Shown here: positions 1 through 7,814 of the stretch, piece by piece
Position numbering within the stretch: position 1 is the first letter of the stretch
Layout of the letters: the number at the start of each line of letters is the position of its first letter
From: a virus
Taxonomy: Duplodnaviria; Heunggongvirae; Uroviricota; Caudoviricetes
Virus record (IMG/VR): IMGVR_UViG_2534682222_000018
Coordinates: 1 to 18,146 of that record
Direction: 5' to 3' (one strand)
DNA length: 18,146 nt
Notes under the pieces: model-generated
The model's input: the letters and a program-made list of their open reading frames with translations, nothing else
Database searches by the model: none
What the model was told of the DNA's origin: nothing
Translations under genes and position numbers: made by a program

Positions 1-765
1 CTATCGCGTGACTTTGTTCAACATCTGGTTTGCGTACTCTTCCTGCTTGATGCACTCACCTACCAGACTTTCGAAAAAATCCTTGTAAGACCTGCGCCAC
101 GTGGTTTCAGGTATATCCATCACCGTTACGCAGATGTATTTACGGACGCTATCAGGTAGCAATCTGGCATAACCACGCCCATTGCAGCGCGTACAGGTTT
201 TATATGCAGGAACTCCGCGCTGTAGAATAGTTTTCTCTTTGTCTAATACTGTTCCTTTGCCATTGCACTGGCATGCGTTGGTCAGAGCACCCTTCCCTTT
301 GCATTTGTGGCAAAGCACCTTAACCATCTCTCTTTTTTCGCTAAGGTGTGGCTGTCCGATATGCTTCATCGTCATTACTTCAGCTTCGACAAACTTATTT
401 CCATTGCAGCAGTCGCACGTTCTGGTACTGGCGGCGCTCCGGGAGTAATCAGCAAAGGCGAAAGTTGCGAGAACTTGCATTACCTTTGGCTTAACATCGC
501 TCTCAAGCTTGCGTAAGGCGGCAACCTTATCGCAGTGCTCAATTGCATATTTGGTCAGCAGGTCAATTGCTCGCTCGCGATCGTAATCGCTGATATCCAT
601 CTTACCGAGGAATGCACTGAACCCGAGATCAGCCCGGCTCTGTGTCATTCCGATCGCCGCCATGACATCCGTCCCGGTCAGCGAATCTGAACCAGTGGCG
701 CGTGGAGAGTCGCTAATAAGCGTCGACTTGGCGAAGTGATATTTCACGGTGTTTTCGAGGTTCAT
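1..765 (-). CDS. Q: Late-gene antiterminator Q (Cys-rich, zinc-binding lambdoid Q family)
   Basis: 254-aa ORF; stop TAG at 1-3 and ATG at 765 preceded by AGGAG. Several CxxC pairs (CDCC, CHKC, CQC, CTRC). Last gene of the nin operon, as in lambdoid phages. Confidence 0.7.
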   Translation of the reverse strand: MNLENTVKYHFAKSTLISDSPRATGSDSLTGTDVMAAIGMTQSRADLGFSAFLGKMDISDYDRERAIDLLTKYAIEHCDKVAALRKLESDVKPKVMQVLATFAFADYSRSAASTRTCDCCNGNKFVEAEVMTMKHIGQPHLSEKREMVKVLCHKCKGKGALTNACQCNGKGTVLDKEKTILQRGVPAYKTCTRCNGRGYARLLPDSVRKYICVTVMDIPETTWRRSYKDFFESLVGECIKQEEYANQMLNKVTR

Positions 766-898
766 TAGGCTGCTCCTGCTGAATGATAGATACGAACAAA
801 ATTACGAAGAATGCGATAATCCACCAGCACCGATCCCCGGTAGCGATAAATGCGAAGGCGCTGCCAGCGCGCGCGGAGTATCTCAAGCGTTTCTGGCT

Positions 899-1255
899 TC
901 ATTTGGCCTCCTCAATAATGATTTGCCCGGTTTCTCCCCAGATTTTGGTAACCCGTCCGTCCCAGACATGGCTATCCTCGTCAAACACTGCATCCAGCAA
1001 AGCTTTTTCCAGGTTGTCTTTGTCCGGCTTTTGTCGATGTGGCTTGCCGACATATTGCGCCCGCTTTGCCTTACTCCAGCTCTTTGGCATGGGGATAACG
1101 AACGTGACGTGATATCCGGACTCAGGCAGACGGATGCCGAGCAACCTGACCTGTTCTTTGTAAGCCCAGTACTCTGCCGTTGCTGGCCGTTTATGCCATC
1201 GGTCACGCTGAGTCATCCTGGGCTTGCCAATCGGCGTAATTTCGTAAATTTTCAT
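899..1255 (-). CDS. rusA: RusA-like Holliday junction resolvase
   Basis: 118-aa ORF with acidic motif PDKDNLEKALLDAVFDEDSHVWDG resembling the RusA catalytic Asp cluster. Its ATG overlaps the upstream stop (ATGA). Sits just upstream of Q, the usual rusA position. Confidence 0.5.
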   Translation of the reverse strand: MKIYEITPIGKPRMTQRDRWHKRPATAEYWAYKEQVRLLGIRLPESGYHVTFVIPMPKSWSKAKRAQYVGKPHRQKPDKDNLEKALLDAVFDEDSHVWDGRVTKIWGETGQIIIEEAK

Positions 1256-1536
1256 GCGGGCACCACCAGCCCGCGGCGGGCAACTTCAATCACTGTCAGA
1301 ACAATCGCGCGATCCATAAGCTGCCGGCGCTCTTCCCTGTTCAGCTTATTCCCGTTATCAATGCTGTCATGACAGCAAACGCAGAGCGCAGCTGTCGCAC
1401 AGTCATCAGTTTTTAATCCCATGCCTTTCCCTTCGTTCCGGTGTGCCACCTGCGTTCCCCATGCGCCACAAAGAACACAACGTTCGATCTGCCCGACTGC
1501 GGCGAGCCACTTCTTGCTGCGGTAGGTTTTACTCAT
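1252..1536 (-). CDS. DUF1364 (YbcO-like) Cys/His-rich nin-region protein
   Basis: Internal ATG at 1536 with RBS AAGGTGGTGAC, placed 5 nt after the phosphatase stop. Motifs [14 protein letters not shown] and CVCCHDSID match recalled YbcO/DUF1364. The longer track ORF (to 1614) overlaps the phosphatase gene and is rejected. Confidence 0.45.
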
Positions 1537-2197
1537 GGTCACCACCTTGCACCTGAACCAGCGTGAGGTTTCCGCAAAACACCGCTCCTGTGTCGATGTA
1601 CATCTGGTTGGCATACTTCAGGGGCTGGCGCGCTGGGGTGTGGCCGAAGATAAACAGATCAGCACCGGCTATCGTCGATACAATGCCGTCCTGTGCGTCG
1701 CTAACCCTCTCACGATTCCAGATGACCATATCTTTCGGGATGGGCTTATCGAACGCATATTCGTTATGCGGGTAGTCAGCGTGGCAGATAACGATTTTAC
1801 GCTCAGCGGTAACCAGCTCGATGACGAGTGGCAGCTCAGCTGCTTTGTGAACCAGAGCCTTAGCCAGCACTTCTTTGTCATAGTCGAGATTGAAGAACCA
1901 GCCGCCACCATTTGCCAACCAGTGATTGACGTTCCCATACTCCGATAGCCCATCAATCATCATCTGCTCATGGTTTCCTCGCACAGCCCGGAACCAAGGC
2001 ATAGTAATCAGCTCCAGGCACTCGACGTTTTCCGCGCCGCGGTCAACAAGGTCTCCAACCGAAATCAGCAAATCACACGCAGGGTCGAACGAAACTTTTC
2101 CGAGCTCATTCATCAGCAGCGTGTAGCACCCATGCAGATCGCCGACGACGAAAATATTGCGCCAGTCAGCGCCATTAATGCGTTGATACATGCTCAT
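1529..2197 (-). CDS. ninI: Ser/Thr protein phosphatase, lambda NinI (PP-lambda)-like metallophosphoesterase
   Basis: Canonical calcineurin-like motifs GDLHG, GDLVDRG and GNHE. Near-colinear with recalled lambda phosphatase ([40 protein letters not shown]). Start ATG 2197 has RBS GAGGAG and overlaps the upstream stop (ATGA). Confidence 0.9.
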
Positions 2198-2364
2198 GCA
2201 GATTTTCTCCTCGCCGCGAGACGCAGCCATTTCTGATCCACCAGGCGGGCGGTGTAGTCTTTCAGGGTCGGGATATCGGACGGCTTAACCGCGGGCTTAG
2301 GCTTGCGGCGCGCCGGAACGCGAAAGATTTCGTTTGTGATGACGCGGGAAAGTGGAGTTGACAT
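2194..2364 (-). CDS. ninE: NinE-like small basic protein
   Basis: 56-aa ORF below the track size cutoff, translated by hand: [65 protein letters not shown]. The RKPKP and W.R...RRK motifs resemble recalled lambda NinE. Coupled to both neighbours. Confidence 0.45.
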
Positions 2365-2819
2365 CAGGCCTCCTGCTTATCGCGCAGCACCTGAAATTCG
2401 CTGCTTTGAGGGATTGTGAGCACCAGGCCAAACTGAGCGCACCAGCCTTCCACCTGGCACATGAAATGGTGCATGTCGCCAGTGTCCAGATCGGACGTGT
2501 GGCGGAGTTCTAATTCAATCGTCTTAATTCCGGTGACGAAATCGGTGTACTCAACCTCTTCATAACCCAGATAAGTTTTTTTGAGGTTTCGCTTTACCCA
2601 TGCAGGCGTTGCGTCAGTGCGCCCAGACTTGATCAGGTAGTCGCTTATTTCCTTGTACCAAACGTGGCTCAGACTATTTTGTGAAAGGCTTCTCTTCTCG
2701 CGCCAGTCTTTGAGTTGGAGCCGGAAGCACTCACCGTTTTCGAGAAGTGGCTTCAGATGCTGAGTGATAGCACCAAGATTTCCACGGTGTAGCTTGATGC
2801 CGTCTTTGGGGATAATCAT
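2364..2819 (-). CDS. ninB: NinB (Orf-family recombination mediator)
   Basis: Start taken at the internal ATG 2819 with RBS AAGGAGG; the longer track ORF runs to 2867. Contains RSLSQNS, similar to the recalled lambda NinB RSLDQNR region. Stop overlaps the NinE-like start (TGATG). Confidence 0.65.
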   Translation of the reverse strand: MIIPKDGIKLHRGNLGAITQHLKPLLENGECFRLQLKDWREKRSLSQNSLSHVWYKEISDYLIKSGRTDATPAWVKRNLKKTYLGYEEVEYTDFVTGIKTIELELRHTSDLDTGDMHHFMCQVEGWCAQFGLVLTIPQSSEFQVLRDKQEA

Positions 2820-3003
2820 ACGGCCTCCTTGACGGAAACCGCAGAATGCAGAAAATCGCAGGTGCATTTCTGCATCTGTGACAAGGTGAGGAGTTCAGAT
2901 TGTTGTCGCATTTAAGTCCCCTTAAATGCGAAGAAGTCATCGAAGTTGTTCAGGCTCCGATGACATGATTATAACATCACTTTTGAAAAATGATTATCAA
3001 GAA

Positions 3004-3672
3004 TCACTCTAACTTCGGCGCTGCTTCAATCATCCTGCGATAGACATTGTAAGTTCCGAATTGTTCATCACCAGCCTCAAGCATTTCATGGGTTGGATCT
3101 TCTGGCACCATCACCCAACCATCAGGAATCACCGGAGAGTTGCCACCCTGAACAGTAGGCATATCCGGACCTTTGCGAATCGCCCTGGCAAGATCGATTG
3201 GGTCATCGTACAACCAGTCACCTGTTTGCGGATGATTGGCTTCTGCCAATTGTGCAGCCCACTCCAGGCCGTCTTTGTGTCCTTGCAGATAGTCCAGCGG
3301 TAACTCATCACTATTACTTACAGGTTCGGCCTGAAGCATGGCGGCGCGATAGGCGTTCCAGCCGACAGCTTTTCCGTGTTCAAACGCGCTGTCAAAGTCA
3401 TCATCCATTTCCATCGCAGCGGGCACAGATACCGGCGCTGGCGGGGCGGTGTAAAGCGGCGTTACTTCTCGCAGCGGGTCGGCATAAGCATTGCCACTAT
3501 CGAAGCTGACGTTGTTTTTTGCCCCGCCTCCTGACAGCAACCACGCCACCGGCTCCGCTTCGAGCGATGCCAGCGCAATCCGTGCCAGTTCCATTTGTTC
3601 ACCACGGGTAAGCCCGTTTTCAAGCGGATTTTTAATGAACAATTCAATACGTTCTTTGGTAATAGTGCTCAT
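3004..3672 (-). CDS. Hypothetical protein (accessory insert in the nin region)
   Basis: 222-aa ORF; ATG 3672 with RBS GGTGAGGA, 3 nt after the upstream stop. Pro/Ala-rich linker (TAPPAPVSVPAA) and acidic C-terminal half. No family recognised. Confidence 0.6.
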   Translation of the reverse strand: MSTITKERIELFIKNPLENGLTRGEQMELARIALASLEAEPVAWLLSGGGAKNNVSFDSGNAYADPLREVTPLYTAPPAPVSVPAAMEMDDDFDSAFEHGKAVGWNAYRAAMLQAEPVSNSDELPLDYLQGHKDGLEWAAQLAEANHPQTGDWLYDDPIDLARAIRKGPDMPTVQGGNSPVIPDGWVMVPEDPTHEMLEAGDEQFGTYNVYRRMIEAAPKLE

Positions 3673-3675
3673 GGG

Positions 3676-4107
3676 TTAGTCCTCACCTTTCTGTTGCACT
3701 ACCGGAACCGATAAATCGACGCACCAGGAGATAACGCCGAATTGATCATCGTTCTGCGCTTCACCCCAAACGTAATATTTTGATCCTGGCCGACCCATTG
3801 CCGGGTCAAATACTTCTATGCCGCGTTCTGCCGTTAACGACATCAGAATCTGATGCAGGCCGCCTTTGATGTTCAGTGACGGAACGGTCAGGAAGTAAAT
3901 AAACCCGTAAAGCAATTCGGCCTTGCGCTGGCTTCCGTAAAAATACGGGATTTTGTAATAATCCAGCGCGTCGTCGAGCCAGTCTGTTTTGTCGTGGAAT
4001 TTCTGATGCCAGCGTTCCACTACCTCATCGACAGATTGACCGGCAACCATTGCAACGCAGGTAGCCATGCAGGTGTTAAATGTTGGCTGCATTTGATGTT
4101 GAAGCAT
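3676..4107 (-). CDS. Hypothetical protein, possible C39-like papain-fold cysteine peptidase
   Basis: 143 aa from ATG 4107 (the track starts at GTG 4110). Candidate Cys-His-Asp order: QMQPTFNTCMATCVAMVAG, GGLHQILM, VFDPAMG. Start overlaps the upstream stop (TGATG). Confidence 0.4.
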   Translation of the reverse strand: MLQHQMQPTFNTCMATCVAMVAGQSVDEVVERWHQKFHDKTDWLDDALDYYKIPYFYGSQRKAELLYGFIYFLTVPSLNIKGGLHQILMSLTAERGIEVFDPAMGRPGSKYYVWGEAQNDDQFGVISWCVDLSVPVVQQKGED

Positions 4108-4655
4108 CACTCCCCCTTACCGATGCCAGCGGCGCGGTCTATGCGTTCGATTTCAGCCAGAATTAAATCCCCTGCTTTTACCAGGTTGCGACGGCGGGCA
4201 TTTGGCTTCCACCATGAAGCATCCCAAGGCCACCCCCACGGCTTGCCACCATTGCGGTTAACAGTTCCTGTTTCGTTTATGTAACAAACCGCCGCCATTG
4301 CCAGTTCCCCGTTGCAGTGTTCGTCATCATGCTCTGGCATCCACCCCTCAACCGATTGTTGCCGCTGGCGCTCTGCTATCACATCCAGAATTGCAGGATT
4401 GAATGCACGCGCTTCCAGTTCTGCAATGCGCTTCTCTGCGGCTTCCAGCGATGCCAGCAGCGCCAGCACGGTGGCGGGGTTGGCTGCGGCGATAAATGCA
4501 GCATCACGCGCTTCGTTTTCACTGAATACCATGGCTATTTGCTCATGGTTCACGCCGTCAGTGGAGTAAATCTCATCGTCGAACTCAACAGCCCACCGGC
4601 CTTTCGTCGCCTTCTCCGCCGCTTCACGCAGAGCCTGGTAATTAATCTCGCTCAC
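4107..4655 (-). CDS. Ead/Ea22-like protein with C-terminal DUF550 (dATP/dGTP pyrophosphohydrolase-like) domain
   Basis: N-terminus MSEINYQALREAAEKAT plus coiled-coil AEKRIAELEAR is the recalled Ead/Ea22 signature. C-terminus has WMPEHDDEH, WGWPWD and ILAEIERIDR. GTG start 4655 with RBS AAAGGAGG overlaps the upstream stop (GTGA). Confidence 0.55.
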   Translation of the reverse strand: MSEINYQALREAAEKATKGRWAVEFDDEIYSTDGVNHEQIAMVFSENEARDAAFIAAANPATVLALLASLEAAEKRIAELEARAFNPAILDVIAERQRQQSVEGWMPEHDDEHCNGELAMAAVCYINETGTVNRNGGKPWGWPWDASWWKPNARRRNLVKAGDLILAEIERIDRAAGIGKGE

Positions 4656-5359
4656 TGGTTGCCTCCTTTGCGAAGCTGGGCGGCGATATCTTCGAGAACG
4701 CCATCAGAGAATGAGCGGTCAAAATCGCCTTCCGGCGCATTAGCCATAAACTCAGTAGAGGTAAGAATCATCCTGGCAATATCCGCGGCGTTCTTTGCAG
4801 TATCATCAATAAAACCAGCTTCCCAGGCAGCCAGCATTCTGTTCGCCACAAAGTAAGCTCCCTCCTTGCGTGCTTCAGTCTTCACTTCAGCCAGGAAGGC
4901 GTCGGTTGCTGGGGTTTCAGGAATAGTGTCTGGAATAACTTCTGAGTAAATGCGATCCATTGCTTCGAGCCATCCATATTCACAGGCGTTATAACCGTCA
5001 GTCTGAAGACCGTTATCCTCAACACCACAGCCCATTCCGATGCTTTGATAATCAGGCTCGTTACTGCGGTCAATCACTGCTGATAGAGTGCCTTTCAGCC
5101 CCGCATTCTCCGCCGCCAGCTCCCTGCACTTGCTCTCGGCGTTAGCGAGCTGTACTGCCATGTCTGTGACTTCGGCTTCAAGTTTTTCAGCATATTCAAT
5201 CAGGAGATCGATTCTTTCCGGCGTTACGGTTTTAACGTATTTGCAAATCGATGACGCATAATTATCATCCTGGAGTGTGCCAGCCAGGCCATTACAAAAT
5301 TTGCGGTTCCCTTTTGTCGCCTTGATATCGGCGATGATTTTTTTAACATCTGGTTTCAT
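4652..5359 (-). CDS. Hypothetical coiled-coil protein (accessory)
   Basis: 235 aa from the internal ATG 5359 with RBS GGGAGGG; overlaps the ren stop (ATGA). The upstream part of the track ORF overlaps ren in another frame and is rejected. Central coiled coil (EKLEAEVTDMAVQLANAESKCRELAAENAGLK). Confidence 0.5.
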   Translation of the reverse strand: MKPDVKKIIADIKATKGNRKFCNGLAGTLQDDNYASSICKYVKTVTPERIDLLIEYAEKLEAEVTDMAVQLANAESKCRELAAENAGLKGTLSAVIDRSNEPDYQSIGMGCGVEDNGLQTDGYNACEYGWLEAMDRIYSEVIPDTIPETPATDAFLAEVKTEARKEGAYFVANRMLAAWEAGFIDDTAKNAADIARMILTSTEFMANAPEGDFDRSFSDGVLEDIAAQLRKGGNQ

Positions 5360-5655
5360 GCTGACACCCTCCCGTAAAACGCCAGTACACGCTGCATCGC
5401 CGGGCTGTTCCGGCACTCCTGAAATATTCCGTTGGTGCAGCTGCGTGCGGTACCGGCCTGCTCTTCCTGCGTGGCCAGGCGATAAGTCACCGTTCGCCAG
5501 ACCTTGCTCACCCGGACAATCTTGCGGGCCCGCTCCAGATCGATAGCGTTCTTCGTGATGCAGTTGATGGTCATGCCGCACTCTGTGGCCACATCCTTCG
5601 CGGTAAAGGTCCTGTGCGTTTCGAGATAACGCAGAATTGCCTGTTTGCCTTTCAT
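5356..5655 (-). CDS. ren: Ren-like protein
   Basis: 99 aa (MKGKQAILRYLETH...). ATG 5655 overlaps the P stop (ATGA), as ren follows P in lambda. Resembles the recalled lambda Ren pattern (VWRTV.YR.AT.EE, ECR.S.AM.RVL). Confidence 0.45.
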   Translation of the reverse strand: MKGKQAILRYLETHRTFTAKDVATECGMTINCITKNAIDLERARKIVRVSKVWRTVTYRLATQEEQAGTARSCTNGIFQECRNSPAMQRVLAFYGRVSA

Positions 5656-6431
5656 TGGATAAGCCCTCTCTCTTTCCCGCGCTGATACTCTTCCCAAAGC
5701 CATTGGGCCGGGGTTAGAGCTCCGAGAGTCGCTGCGTTTGGCATGCACCCGAAGCTTTTTCCTTCCGGGTGATAACCGGCCTGACGGCTCACGTGATTTG
5801 TCGGGATCACTTCATCAGAATTCTCGAGCGCCAGGACGGGGGATGGTATTTTTTCCCCACCAGCAACTTTCAGCGCCCATTCCTCAAGTTTTTTTGACGC
5901 GTATTTTTCAGTTTCAGCCTCGCTCAGCTGGCGCTGGTACATCGCTCTGCGCGTATCGGTCACAATCCAGTACATGACGTCATGAGACCACGGGAAAGCT
6001 TCTGCTCCGCCGGTATGCAGCCCTTTTTCGCGGCTATACCGATGGAACTCATTCATCACATCAGCCAGGCCAATGCCAAGTACCGTGCCGCTATCCTTGC
6101 ACCATTTGATGAATTGCCCCGGAGAAGGCCAGAAGGGTGATTCACTGGCGCGGGCATGCCGTACACCTGCGGAAAGTTGTTCGCGGGTGCGGATCCCATT
6201 CTCTGAAAACGCTGCGATCCACTGACGCTTTGCCGTTTTCTCGTCTGCGTCAGTTTTCAGGTTTGTCTGCGTAGACGCAGGGAAAATCTGCTTCAGCTGC
6301 CGAAATAGAGAATCAACAAGCCCCTCAGCCTCAGGGTTGATAACCTTCTGCTGGTCGGTACTTCCGTTCGCCATTCTGGAAAGTAGCGCACCATCACGGC
6401 CGTTAACGGCTTGCATAATCTGATTATTCAC
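5652..6431 (-). CDS. P: Replication protein P-like (DnaB helicase loader)
   Basis: RQWIAAFSENGIRTREQLSAGVRHARASESPFWPSPGQFIKWC matches recalled lambda P (RRQWVLAFRENGITTMEQVNAGMRVARRQNRPFLPSPGQFVAWC). Start taken at GTG 6431 (SD GGGAGGA, 6-nt spacer, GTGA overlap with the O stop). The track ATG at 6446 has no usable spacer. Confidence 0.75.
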   Translation of the reverse strand: MNNQIMQAVNGRDGALLSRMANGSTDQQKVINPEAEGLVDSLFRQLKQIFPASTQTNLKTDADEKTAKRQWIAAFSENGIRTREQLSAGVRHARASESPFWPSPGQFIKWCKDSGTVLGIGLADVMNEFHRYSREKGLHTGGAEAFPWSHDVMYWIVTDTRRAMYQRQLSEAETEKYASKKLEEWALKVAGGEKIPSPVLALENSDEVIPTNHVSRQAGYHPEGKSFGCMPNAATLGALTPAQWLWEEYQRGKERGLIQ

Positions 6432-7162
6432 AGGAAGTCCTCCCATCCCTCGCGGCTGTTCCAGTGAGGCGTTTCCTGCTCGGCACGACCACGCTTAGCC
6501 AGCGGGTTAACCCTGGCATTCCGGATCCAGACTCTGAAAGCCGAATTCCAGTCGATTAGCTGCGTGCCACGGGAAAGGTGATAGTCCCGGAAGTTCAGCA
6601 GCTCAGTTTCAATGCTCACCCCCTTCTCGGCAGCCATAGCAATGTGATCTGCCGACGGCTTAAACAGGGGCGGGAATGGAATCTCCCCGTTTGGTGAAAT
6701 CCCGATCCGCCGCTTAGCGGCTTCGCTCATAAAACCATCGCGCCCAGAGAGAGAGTTAGGTTCAGTGACTGGTTCAAAAGAGTGACTGGTTCTGGTGCCA
6801 TCTGGTGGCACAGGGGGTGTGCAATCAGATGGCATAGGGTGTGCTTCTTCGTGGCATACCCCTGTGCAATTTAATGGCATAGGGGTGGCATCTAATTTCA
6901 GGTAATACACATTTGACGTGTTACCTTTTCCGTTGTTGACGCCAACACGGTTCTCACGCCTGATAAGCCCCATTTCTTCAAGCGCATCAATATGGTTACG
7001 AACAGCCGTTCTGCTGCATTCGCATTGGTCGGCGATATGTTGATACGAAGGCCAGCATTCGCCTTTATCGTTGGCGTTATCGGCCAACTTAATCAGGACG
7101 AGCTTACGCAGTGAGTTTCCCACTTTGACCCCCATTGCTTTCGCCATAAGTGACATGCTCAC
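6428..7162 (-). CDS. O: Replication initiator, O-like (N-terminal winged-HTH, Pro-rich linker)
   Basis: 244-aa ORF directly upstream of and coupled to P. N-terminal HTH region (LKLVLIKLADNANDKGECWPSYQHIADQCECSRTAVRNHIDALEEMGLI). Iteron-like repeats lie inside the gene. Start is GTG 7162 (RBS GGAGG, 6-nt spacer) or ATG 7156. Confidence 0.6.
   Translation of the reverse strand: MSMSLMAKAMGVKVGNSLRKLVLIKLADNANDKGECWPSYQHIADQCECSRTAVRNHIDALEEMGLIRRENRVGVNNGKGNTSNVYYLKLDATPMPLNCTGVCHEEAHPMPSDCTPPVPPDGTRTSHSFEPVTEPNSLSGRDGFMSEAAKRRIGISPNGEIPFPPLFKPSADHIAMAAEKGVSIETELLNFRDYHLSRGTQLIDWNSAFRVWIRNARVNPLAKRGRAEQETPHWNSREGWEDFL
6764..6893. repeat. Iteron-like repeat cluster inside the O gene (putative ori)
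   Basis: 12-bp direct repeat AGTGACTGGTTC at 6764-6775 and 6781-6792. Four or more TGGCA(C/T)A(G/C)GGG-type units at 6807, 6831, 6853 and 6876 (period 22-24 bp), followed by an A/T-rich stretch. Confidence 0.5.
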
Positions 7163-7286
7163 GTGCTACCTCCGGTTTGTTTACTCTCTTCGATTTACCT
7201 GGCATAATTGCCTCGCAATTGACTGACGTTTATTGCACCTGAAAGCCGTTGGTGTTAGCGCACCGCGGCTTTCGCCCTTTCTGCGT

Positions 7287-7508
7287 TCATGCTTCAAAAT
7301 CTCCCTTCACTCCATCCCTGTTCGAAATCAGGATGGCCAGCAGCAGCGACATGTTCGGTACCAGGTTTTCCCGCCACCGGCTGACTGTGGATTTGTTGAT
7401 GCCAGCTACTTCGGCTATCCGGGCGGTACCCAGATCAGCGATTTGACGCTGCACCCAGCTCTCAATTCGTCGTGCCTCCGCTTTGTTGCGTGTCGTTAAG
7501 GTCTCCAT
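7287..7508 (-). CDS. cII: CII-like transcriptional activator
   Basis: 73 aa. RNKAEARRIESWVQRQIADLGTARIAEVAGINKSTVSRWRENLVPNMSLLLAILI aligns with recalled lambda CII. ATG 7508 with RBS GAGGAA. Located just downstream of cro. Confidence 0.7.
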   Translation of the reverse strand: METLTTRNKAEARRIESWVQRQIADLGTARIAEVAGINKSTVSRWRENLVPNMSLLLAILISNRDGVKGDFEA

Positions 7509-7548
7509 TTGCGATAATTCCTCTGATTTAATTGGTTATGGCCGCCGG

Positions 7549-7794
7549 TCAGGCGGCATGTGAATCTTGTTTAATTCGGTCAGGGTTAGCTGCTTGACGG
7601 AGCCATTCAGCCGTAAACTGCCCATTTGATGCGTCAGCCAAAAGCTGCGAATAGTTGGTTTTCTCTGTGTACTCAGTACGAGGCAGCGCCGCGTTCTTCA
7701 CCCACTTGTGAATAGCAACGTTCGATAGGCCACACAGGCGAGCAGCAGCGGTTTGACCGCCTACAGCTTCGATTGCAAATTGCATTGGGTTCAT
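7549..7794 (-). CDS. cro: Cro-like HTH regulator (Cro/YdaS type)
   Basis: 81 aa with HTH GQTAAARLCGLSNVAIHKW. Transcribed divergently from the cI-like gene across an operator-rich 84-bp spacer. Confidence 0.6.
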   Translation of the reverse strand: MNPMQFAIEAVGGQTAAARLCGLSNVAIHKWVKNAALPRTEYTEKTNYSQLLADASNGQFTAEWLRQAANPDRIKQDSHAA

Positions 7795-7814
7795 AGTGTT
7801 TTCCGTTAACTATA

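Follow-up and report, generated by a model that had tools for sequence, protein, structure and literature searches.

Linked genes in the distal early-right operon of a mosaic lambdoid prophage and a conserved putative promoter/hairpin/leader module before ninB

When the genes between O and Q were examined in an 18,146-nucleotide (nt) stretch from a virus of the Caudoviricetes (positions 1 to 18,146 of IMG/VR record IMGVR_UViG_2534682222_000018; this whole stretch is called the window here), most of them were found to be joined by overlapping stop and start codons. The best-supported explanation places these genes, all on the minus strand, in the distal portion of the early-right (pR) operon of a mosaic lambdoid prophage, where they are read as one pR-driven early transcript with two runs of linked genes. 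We put the probability of this explanation as a whole at about 0.85. Directly observed are the identities of the genes, the geometry of their junctions, the Shine–Dalgarno (SD) sequences, and the conservation in relatives of both the junction pattern and a non-coding module that lies between the two runs.

Overlaps occur at 12 of the 14 junctions from O to Q (eight of −4 nt, three of −1 nt and one of −8 nt), and one further junction is a gap of +3 nt. In most groups of prokaryotes, approximately 15% of gene pairs are co-directional and overlap (Huber et al. 2019, PMC6728339). Since the binomial P for 12 of 14 against this background is 8.8e-9, the junction pattern is real and far beyond chance. 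TGA accounts for 10 of the 14 stop codons at the junctions. All junction starts have an SD of −6.6 to −12.7 kcal/mol (anti-SD duplex energy) inside the upstream gene, and in nearly every open reading frame (ORF) the overlapping start is the best SD candidate. The first run extends from O to the DUF551 gene (7156..3004), and the second from a ylcH-like ORF to Q (2911..1).

Genes and junctions from O to Q

The genes were identified by Pfam and PHROG profile scans together with the PGAP annotation of relatives. All long ORFs in 1..7200 are on the minus strand, and the order is cro, cII, O, P, ren, four accessory ORFs, a ylcH-like ORF, ninB/ybcN, ninE, the ninI phosphatase gene, the DUF1364/HNH gene, rusA, ylcG and Q. 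Upstream of O lie cII-like, cro-like and cI-like repressor genes, and a pR-like site, TTGACA-17-GATATA, is visible at approximately 7830-7858 on the minus strand. The position between O/P and Q in the early-right operon is that of the lambdoid nin region, and nin homologues are present (phrog_72 for ninB, PF05322 for ninE, PF00149 for ninI and phrog_140 for rusA).

6428..7156, minus: O-like replication initiator (HTH_36 plus DnaT-like C-terminus); PF13730, 7.5e-14; 729 nt in the PGAP annotation of relatives
5652..6446 (ATG 6446), or from GTG 6431, minus: replication protein P; PF06992, 4e-58
5356..5655, minus: Ren-like exclusion protein, ATGA overlap at both ends; phrog_142, 5.5e-35; PGAP "protein ren" of 300 nt in relatives
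4652..5359, minus: accessory ORF 1 (orf235, 235 amino acids (aa)); phrog_26126, aligned from residue 1; SD GGGAGGG, −10.8 kcal/mol
4107..4655, minus: accessory ORF 2 (ead), Ead/Ea22-like, 182 aa, GTG start; PF13935, 4.8e-20, aligned from residue 2
3676..4107 or 4110, minus: accessory ORF 3 (orf143, 143/144 aa); phrog_4049
3004..3672, minus: accessory ORF 4 (222 aa; DUF551 in the annotation of relatives); phrog_60 and others; SD GGTGAGGA, −8.5 kcal/mol
2816..2911, minus: ylcH-like ORF of 31 codons; counterparts are ylcH of K-12, orf33 of phage 82 and gp59 of HK225
2364..2819, minus: NinB/YbcN (Orf-family recombination mediator); phrog_72, 2.9e-40; "YbcN family protein" in relatives
2194..2364, minus: NinE; PF05322, phrog_288
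1529..2197, minus: NinI-type Ser/Thr protein phosphatase; PF00149; 669 nt in the phi80 and HK225 annotation
1252..1536, minus: DUF1364/HNH (YbcO-like); phrog_131, 1e-31; SD −12.7 kcal/mol
899..1255, minus: RusA (Holliday junction resolvase), ATGA overlap at both ends; phrog_140, 1.7e-28; annotated in relatives
765..902, minus: YlcG-like small ORF, 45 aa; phrog_2705, 6.2e-28; "YlcG family protein" in relatives
1..765, minus: Q-type antiterminator, the end of the chain; "antitermination protein" annotated under the match in relatives

For each junction, every in-frame start candidate was tabulated with its upstream sequence, and the anti-SD duplex energy was computed for each. The junctions, all on the minus strand, are as follows.

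O to P: GTGA (−4) with GTG 6431, the O stop TGA (6428-6430) overlapping that GTG; −19 with ATG 6446
P to ren: ATGA, 5652-5655
ren to orf235: ATGA, 5356-5359
orf235 to ead: GTGA, 4652-4655
ead to orf143: TGATG (−1) with ATG 4107; GTGA (−4) with GTG 4110
orf143 to the DUF551 gene: +3 gap
DUF551 gene to the ylcH-like ORF: +92 gap (184 nt to ninB), not tight
ylcH-like ORF to ninB: ATGA
ninB to ninE: TGATG
ninE to the phosphatase gene: ATGA
phosphatase gene to the DUF1364/HNH gene: −8 overlap, ATGAGTAA
DUF1364/HNH gene to rusA: ATGA
rusA to ylcG: ATGA
ylcG to Q: TAATG

The preliminary description of this DNA had drawn an unbroken chain of overlaps or 3-5 nt gaps from O down to rusA, placed at 1252-6446. 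The overlaps bear this out, but the chain is broken by the 184-nt gap at 2820..3003, which had been missed, and it runs further, via rusA (899..1255) and ylcG to Q (1..765). The ATGA, GTGA and TGATG junctions listed there occur, as does a single short gap of +3 nt, but the −8 type between the phosphatase and HNH genes was left out. The ORF at 1252..1614, labelled as rusA, in fact encodes the DUF1364/HNH protein (phrog_131); the real rusA is at 899..1255 (phrog_140).

The same kinds of junction are found in ten relatives tabulated from their annotation (phi80, HK225, HK639, phage 82, DLP12 of K-12 and five E. coli prophages). Of the 96 annotated junctions in these relatives, 74 overlap, with 46 at −4, 14 at −1 and nine at −8. 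The −8 overlap in the window follows from the start of the HNH gene, ATG 1536, which aligns with the HK639 start codon.

Two GTG initiators had been proposed in the accessory genes, of which one is secure. At GTG 4655 of ead, AGGAGG lies 5 nt upstream (SD −11.6 kcal/mol), the next in-frame start is 34 codons downstream and the Pfam domain begins at residue 2. Relatives have ATG at this very codon, within the homologous junction CAAGGAGGCAGCCCAATGAGC. Given the strong SD, the lack of an alternative start and the ATG in relatives, this start is well supported from the sequence comparison. GTG 4110 of orf143 directly precedes an in-frame ATG (GTGATG), and here the choice between GTG 4110 and ATG 4107 is ambiguous: in four relatives PGAP places the start of the counterpart at the ATG (a CDS of 432 nt), while the alignment to the PHROG profile already includes the GTG-encoded residue. 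For P, the PGAP-style start is ATG 6446, which has GAGGG immediately abutting it, whereas GTG 6431 has GGAGG at a 6-nt spacing (−10.2 kcal/mol). Klebsiella phage RAH1 (approximately 80% identity) lacks the upstream ATG, and its homologous P begins at the codon corresponding to GTG 6431, as part of an ATGA overlap. On the basis of the SD spacing and the RAH1 start, P most likely starts at GTG 6431, which would make the O to P junction a further GTGA.

This arrangement is probably one of coupled translation. A ribosome that ends one gene would re-initiate at the overlapping start or unmask the SD of the next, and the genes would be translated in coupled fashion from one long pR transcript carrying two stop/start-linked runs. 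Such modules could be swapped at gene boundaries without promoters or terminators of their own. We infer coupling from the junction geometry, the SD positions and the strict coupling shown for 13 of 14 overlapping pairs tested in E. coli and Haloferax volcanii (PMC6728339). The features associated with coupling by Huber et al. 2019, namely a −4 or −1 overlap and an SD in the 3′ end of the upstream gene, are present here; coupling is plausible. The main rival holds that the overlaps are a mere by-product of compaction and of start/stop turnover, each gene initiating from its own SD without any coupling. Strong SDs at all downstream starts fit this rival as well. However, the junction geometry is kept across relatives with different genes, homologous junction sequences recur beside unrelated upstream genes, and all but one of the tested pairs were strictly coupled. 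We therefore consider it improbable that compaction is the whole explanation.

The module between the two runs

The 184-nt gap (2820..3003) lies between the DUF551 stop (3004) and the ninB start (2819), and it folds far better than shuffled sequence (z = −7.07). Its sequence is conserved beside unrelated upstream genes and two downstream families (YbcN-type and NinB-type). A 20-mer from this stretch retrieved at least 120 viral contigs, which gave 108 unique leader sequences, and 2960 of 5426 complete E. coli genomes match a 291-nt query (phage 82 leader plus the start of ybcN). An Rfam scan of the whole window (E≤1) gave nothing in 1..7200, its sole match being an isrB-like one elsewhere. In the explanation that we favor, a conserved non-coding module of approximately 150 nt, made of a promoter, a promoter-proximal hairpin and a leader ORF coupled to ninB, would separate the two runs. 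Its elements in the window are listed here; the leader is the ylcH-like ORF.

2968..2976, minus: extended −10 promoter-like site TGTTATAAT; predicted transcription start near 2961
2936..2964, minus: first hairpin, GUCAUCGGAG-CCUGAACAA-CUUCGAUGAC followed by UUCUU
2906..2931, minus: second hairpin, "IR4" of phi80, with GGGA in the loop (which holds the SD) and the AUG of the ylcH-like ORF in the 3′ arm; from the phi80 annotation and the fold

The promoter-like site, TGTTATAAT, is the sole TGNTATAAT match in the 18-kb window and occupies the same relative place as the TTGATT-17-CATAAT promoter of DLP12 ylcH. Promoter geometry is conserved in the 108 leader sequences: 88 have TTGAT[TA]-17-[CA]ATA[AC]T, and ten, including the window, have TGnTATAAT without a −35. 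In these sequences the first hairpin begins 3-4 nt after the −10 element. Its stem is held by covariation, both sides changing in six of the ten pairs, and at one pair each of the six standard pair types occurs. Pairing is found in 91.5% of cells, compared to 32-46% after sliding the 3′ partners. Conservation extends to the 9-nt loop, YCUGAACAM, which reads CCUGAACAA in the window. The second hairpin has GGGGA in its loop and different stem sequences in phage 82-type relatives. A third hairpin (2846..2875) shows only G-U changes, and its 5′ arm is fixed by the search pattern, so it is not informative on covariation. Of the 108 sequences, 103 keep the ylcH-like ORF (31–38 codons in relatives) open, and its end overlaps the start of ninB/ybcN as ATGA in 75 and as GTGA in 28. 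In the window it has the same geometry, its own stop lying in an ATGA overlap on the ninB start, and both hairpins are present.

The phage 82 record (X92588) annotates a putative −35/−10 and a "possible regulator-binding site" at this leader. That the hairpin annotated in this way serves as a protein operator is disfavored: the arms covary to unrelated sequences, and it is the asymmetric loop that is conserved. A perfect 6-bp GC hairpin, GCCGCC-UGACC-GGCGGC, is seen at 7538..7556 (minus), overlapping the cro-like stop codon, in a position like that of nutR boxB or a small terminator. A comparison of the module loop with the boxB-like hairpin after cro (GCCGCCUGACCGGCGGC) found only CCUGA in common, which is unconvincing. 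Literature searches on the phi80 "IR4" and on internal nin promoters returned nothing useful and nothing relevant, respectively.

Two other signals were noted around the module. In 21 of 109 unique relatives an intrinsic-terminator-like hairpin (e.g., GGCCTCTTCGGAGGCC plus TTTCTCTT) lies just upstream of the leader promoter; in the relatives numbered L001, L002, L014 and others it is approximately 10–40 nt upstream of the leader −35, and there is none in the window. On the plus strand, a promoter-like TTGACG-16-GAAAAT at 2829..2856 is antisense to the ylcH-like ORF and, if active, would yield RNA antisense to the leader hairpins.

Promoter activity and the RNA 3′ end of the module are taken from homologues, and would apply to the window by analogy. 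In the supplement entries of Kim et al. 2012 (PMC3415461) for this part of K-12, a primary transcription start is placed at an A 7 nt after CATAAT and assigned to ylcH, with a third-column value of 247 compared to 2 and 3 for the neighboring entries. Among the curated Term-seq 3′ ends in supplements 1 and 3 of Adams et al. 2021 (PMC7815308) are 572349/572350, which directly follow the first hairpin and precede the start codon of ylcH by 19 nt. After conversion to one coordinate system, start and 3′ end are approximately 31 nt apart; the Term-seq scores of these 3′ ends are low. The rusA gene of DLP12 needs a promoter supplied by an insertion sequence (IS) for adequate expression (Curtis et al. 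2014, PMC4118853). Together, the start, the 3′ end and the need of rusA for the IS promoter suggest a promoter that is active, with transcripts mostly stopping at the first hairpin. According to the preliminary description, promoters or transcript ends mapped inside the cluster would speak against an integrated operon. Such ends do exist in the DLP12 homologue, but at the edge of the accessory block and not inside it.

These data bear on a second rival, in which the internal promoter drives the distal run (ylcH-like ORF to Q) as a transcription unit of its own, so that there would be two operons. The mapped DLP12 start with its value of 247, the conserved promoter geometry (the 88 and ten of 108 sequences given above) and the putative promoter annotated at the same place in phage 82 all agree with it. 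However, the RNA ends approximately 30 nt after the start, so transcripts seem to stop early, and DLP12 rusA requires the IS promoter; a fully separate distal operon is therefore unlikely. An unregulated promoter upstream of Q would, moreover, be expected to harm the lysogen, and with no terminator between the DUF551 gene and the module, read-through from pR is expected.

A more specific role may be considered for 2820..2976: with its promoter, its hairpin with an invariant 9-nt loop and its ylcH leader, it may serve specifically in regulation, dividing the early-right operon into two runs. The promoter would be constitutive, with transcripts that stop approximately 30 nt on at the hairpin, and the hairpin and leader would gate ninB to Q by attenuation, by modifying RNA polymerase in a nut/put-like manner or by binding a factor at the loop. 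Carried over from DLP12, this remains a tentative proposal, and we think it somewhat doubtful.

The accessory block

The four accessory ORFs are linked to ren and to one another by ATGA, GTGA, TGATG and a +3 gap, with the strong SD of each inside the preceding gene. They use the junction types of the operon, as had been described. A simple scan of 1..8800 gave no minus-strand sigma-70-type promoter match, including in 3004..5655, and terminator-like sites in 1..8800 were not above shuffles. This promoter scan demands a −35 hexamer, which is the reason that the extended −10 site at 2968..2976 was missed. After the DUF551 gene, no terminator-like hairpin was found in the window. GC content is 0.46–0.57 throughout, and the accessory genes do not deviate from their neighbors. 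As there is no promoter-like match, no excess of terminators and a uniform GC content, and as the block starts in an ATGA within ren, the accessory ORFs appear to depend on the signals of the operon.

The dependence on operon signals had been read as full integration rather than recent insertion. The first part stands, as no expression signals of their own were detected in the accessory genes, but the comparative data do not support the second. No record covers at least 80% of the region or of the accessory cassette among phage records or the 5,426 complete E. coli genomes (0 of 5,426 for the cassette), and relatives that are 95–99% identical in the flanks carry different cargo between ren and ninB. 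This interval is hypervariable among relatives. Homology often breaks at gene junctions: at ren/orf235 +8/+9 in three loci, and elsewhere at ninE/ppp (the phosphatase gene), ppp/HNH, rusA/ylcG and ylcG/Q. Homology to several relatives also breaks at common positions inside ead (4489) and the DUF551 gene (3112-3120 and 3543-3591), which suggests recurrent domain-level recombination joints besides those at gene boundaries. Judged by these alignments, mosaicism in the region is greatest in the accessory block.

In relatives with different cargo the junction types recur, and some of the junction sequences are homologous as well. Because a junction sequence can be common to different gene combinations, tight junctions are the way in which modules are exchanged and not a sign of age.

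A moron is reportedly (Juhala et al. 2000) an autonomous inserted gene with its own promoter and terminator. That the accessory genes are a recently inserted cassette of this kind would fit the uniqueness of the cassette, the hypervariable ren-ninB interval and the terminator-like hairpin just upstream of the ninB leader in 21 of 109 relatives, but we reject it as highly improbable, since 3004..5655 has neither a coding-strand promoter-like match nor an excess of terminator-like sites, no terminator follows the DUF551 gene in the window, the first accessory gene begins in an ATGA overlap with ren and GC content is not deviant.

Relation to other lambdoid phages and meaning

Several points count against a single coupled transcript with an active module and were considered in weighing it. 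With a strong SD of its own, every gene has room for independent initiation. Three starts (those of P, orf143 and the HNH gene) are placed by arguments from homology and SD only. The promoter-like site of the window differs from the mapped DLP12 promoter in having no −35 element and TGnTATAAT instead, and a single TGnTATAAT in 18 kb is readily expected by chance, as 62 of 200 shuffles show. A weak negative is that no ybcM-ylcH promoter appears among the retrieved RpoD holoenzyme SELEX rows that cover this stretch of DLP12.

Descriptions of such a junction chain in lambdoid nin regions go back to 1982, so the chain itself is already known. According to papers that cite Kroger & Hobom 1982 (Gene 20:25), lambda ninR is "a chain of interlinked genes", and one such paper (PMC8022706) states that tight packing with ATGA motifs is common to the nin genes of all lambdoid phages. 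As in lambda ninR, the nin-region genes of the window occupy the stretch of the pR operon that separates the replication genes from Q, small ORFs are joined through ATGA or TGATG, and ninB, ninE and ninI homologues are present. Lambda, in contrast, has rap/ninG where the window has rusA and the DUF1364 gene, and the window carries four Ead/DUF551-type accessory ORFs after ren. Lambda also has the mapped terminators tR2-tR4, and these have no recognizable counterpart in the window. When the ylcH leader was searched by blastn, the listing contained lambda-like isolates only, and its 37 records include neither J02459 nor NC_001416.

The order of phage 82 (X92588) and DLP12 is closer: ylcH/orf33, ybcN, ninE, ybcO, rusA, ylcG and Q (quuD in DLP12), with the same junction types as in the window (−4, −1, −8, −4, −4). 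Their leader module is homologous to that of the window, with 80.7% identity over 136 nt. The window differs from both in having the ninI phosphatase gene inserted between ninE and the DUF1364 gene, in its TGnTATAAT promoter variant without the TTGATT −35, and in a DUF1364/HNH gene of the HK639/HK225 type.

The best phage matches are HK225 and phi80. Their match, at 95–96% identity, begins at the DUF551 C-terminus or the leader and continues through ninB, ninE and the phosphatase gene; for HK225 the match extends through the HNH gene and rusA as well. The second hairpin is annotated in phi80 (as IR4), and the 31-codon ORF in HK225. Both phages differ in the replication genes and in the cargo between ren and the leader, and neither covers half of the region.

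Elsewhere in the window, the plus strand encodes at 11923..16436 a RecE-like exonuclease of 1129 aa and, across a gap of 5 nt, a RecT-like annealing protein of 372 aa, and an integrase gene is at 16953..18146. The prophage combines a Rac-type recombination module with nin genes of the phi80/HK225/phage 82 type. A match to isrB (Rfam RF01386, an Hfq-binding small RNA) at 11784..11881 on the minus strand scores 38.2 bits (gathering score 35; E = 7.7e-4) and sits just upstream of the RecE-like gene.

For annotation, the corrections are the mislabelled rusA, the probable GTG start of P and the small ylcH-like ORF that had been missed. The junction chain adds nothing new, being a textbook trait of lambdoid nin regions, and it shows how accessory genes ride on the signals of an operon. 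In mosaic phages, tight junctions should not count as proof of ancient integration. The promoter/hairpin/leader module before ninB is the only element that merits further work; thousands of E. coli prophages carry it upstream of Q, the gene that controls lysis.

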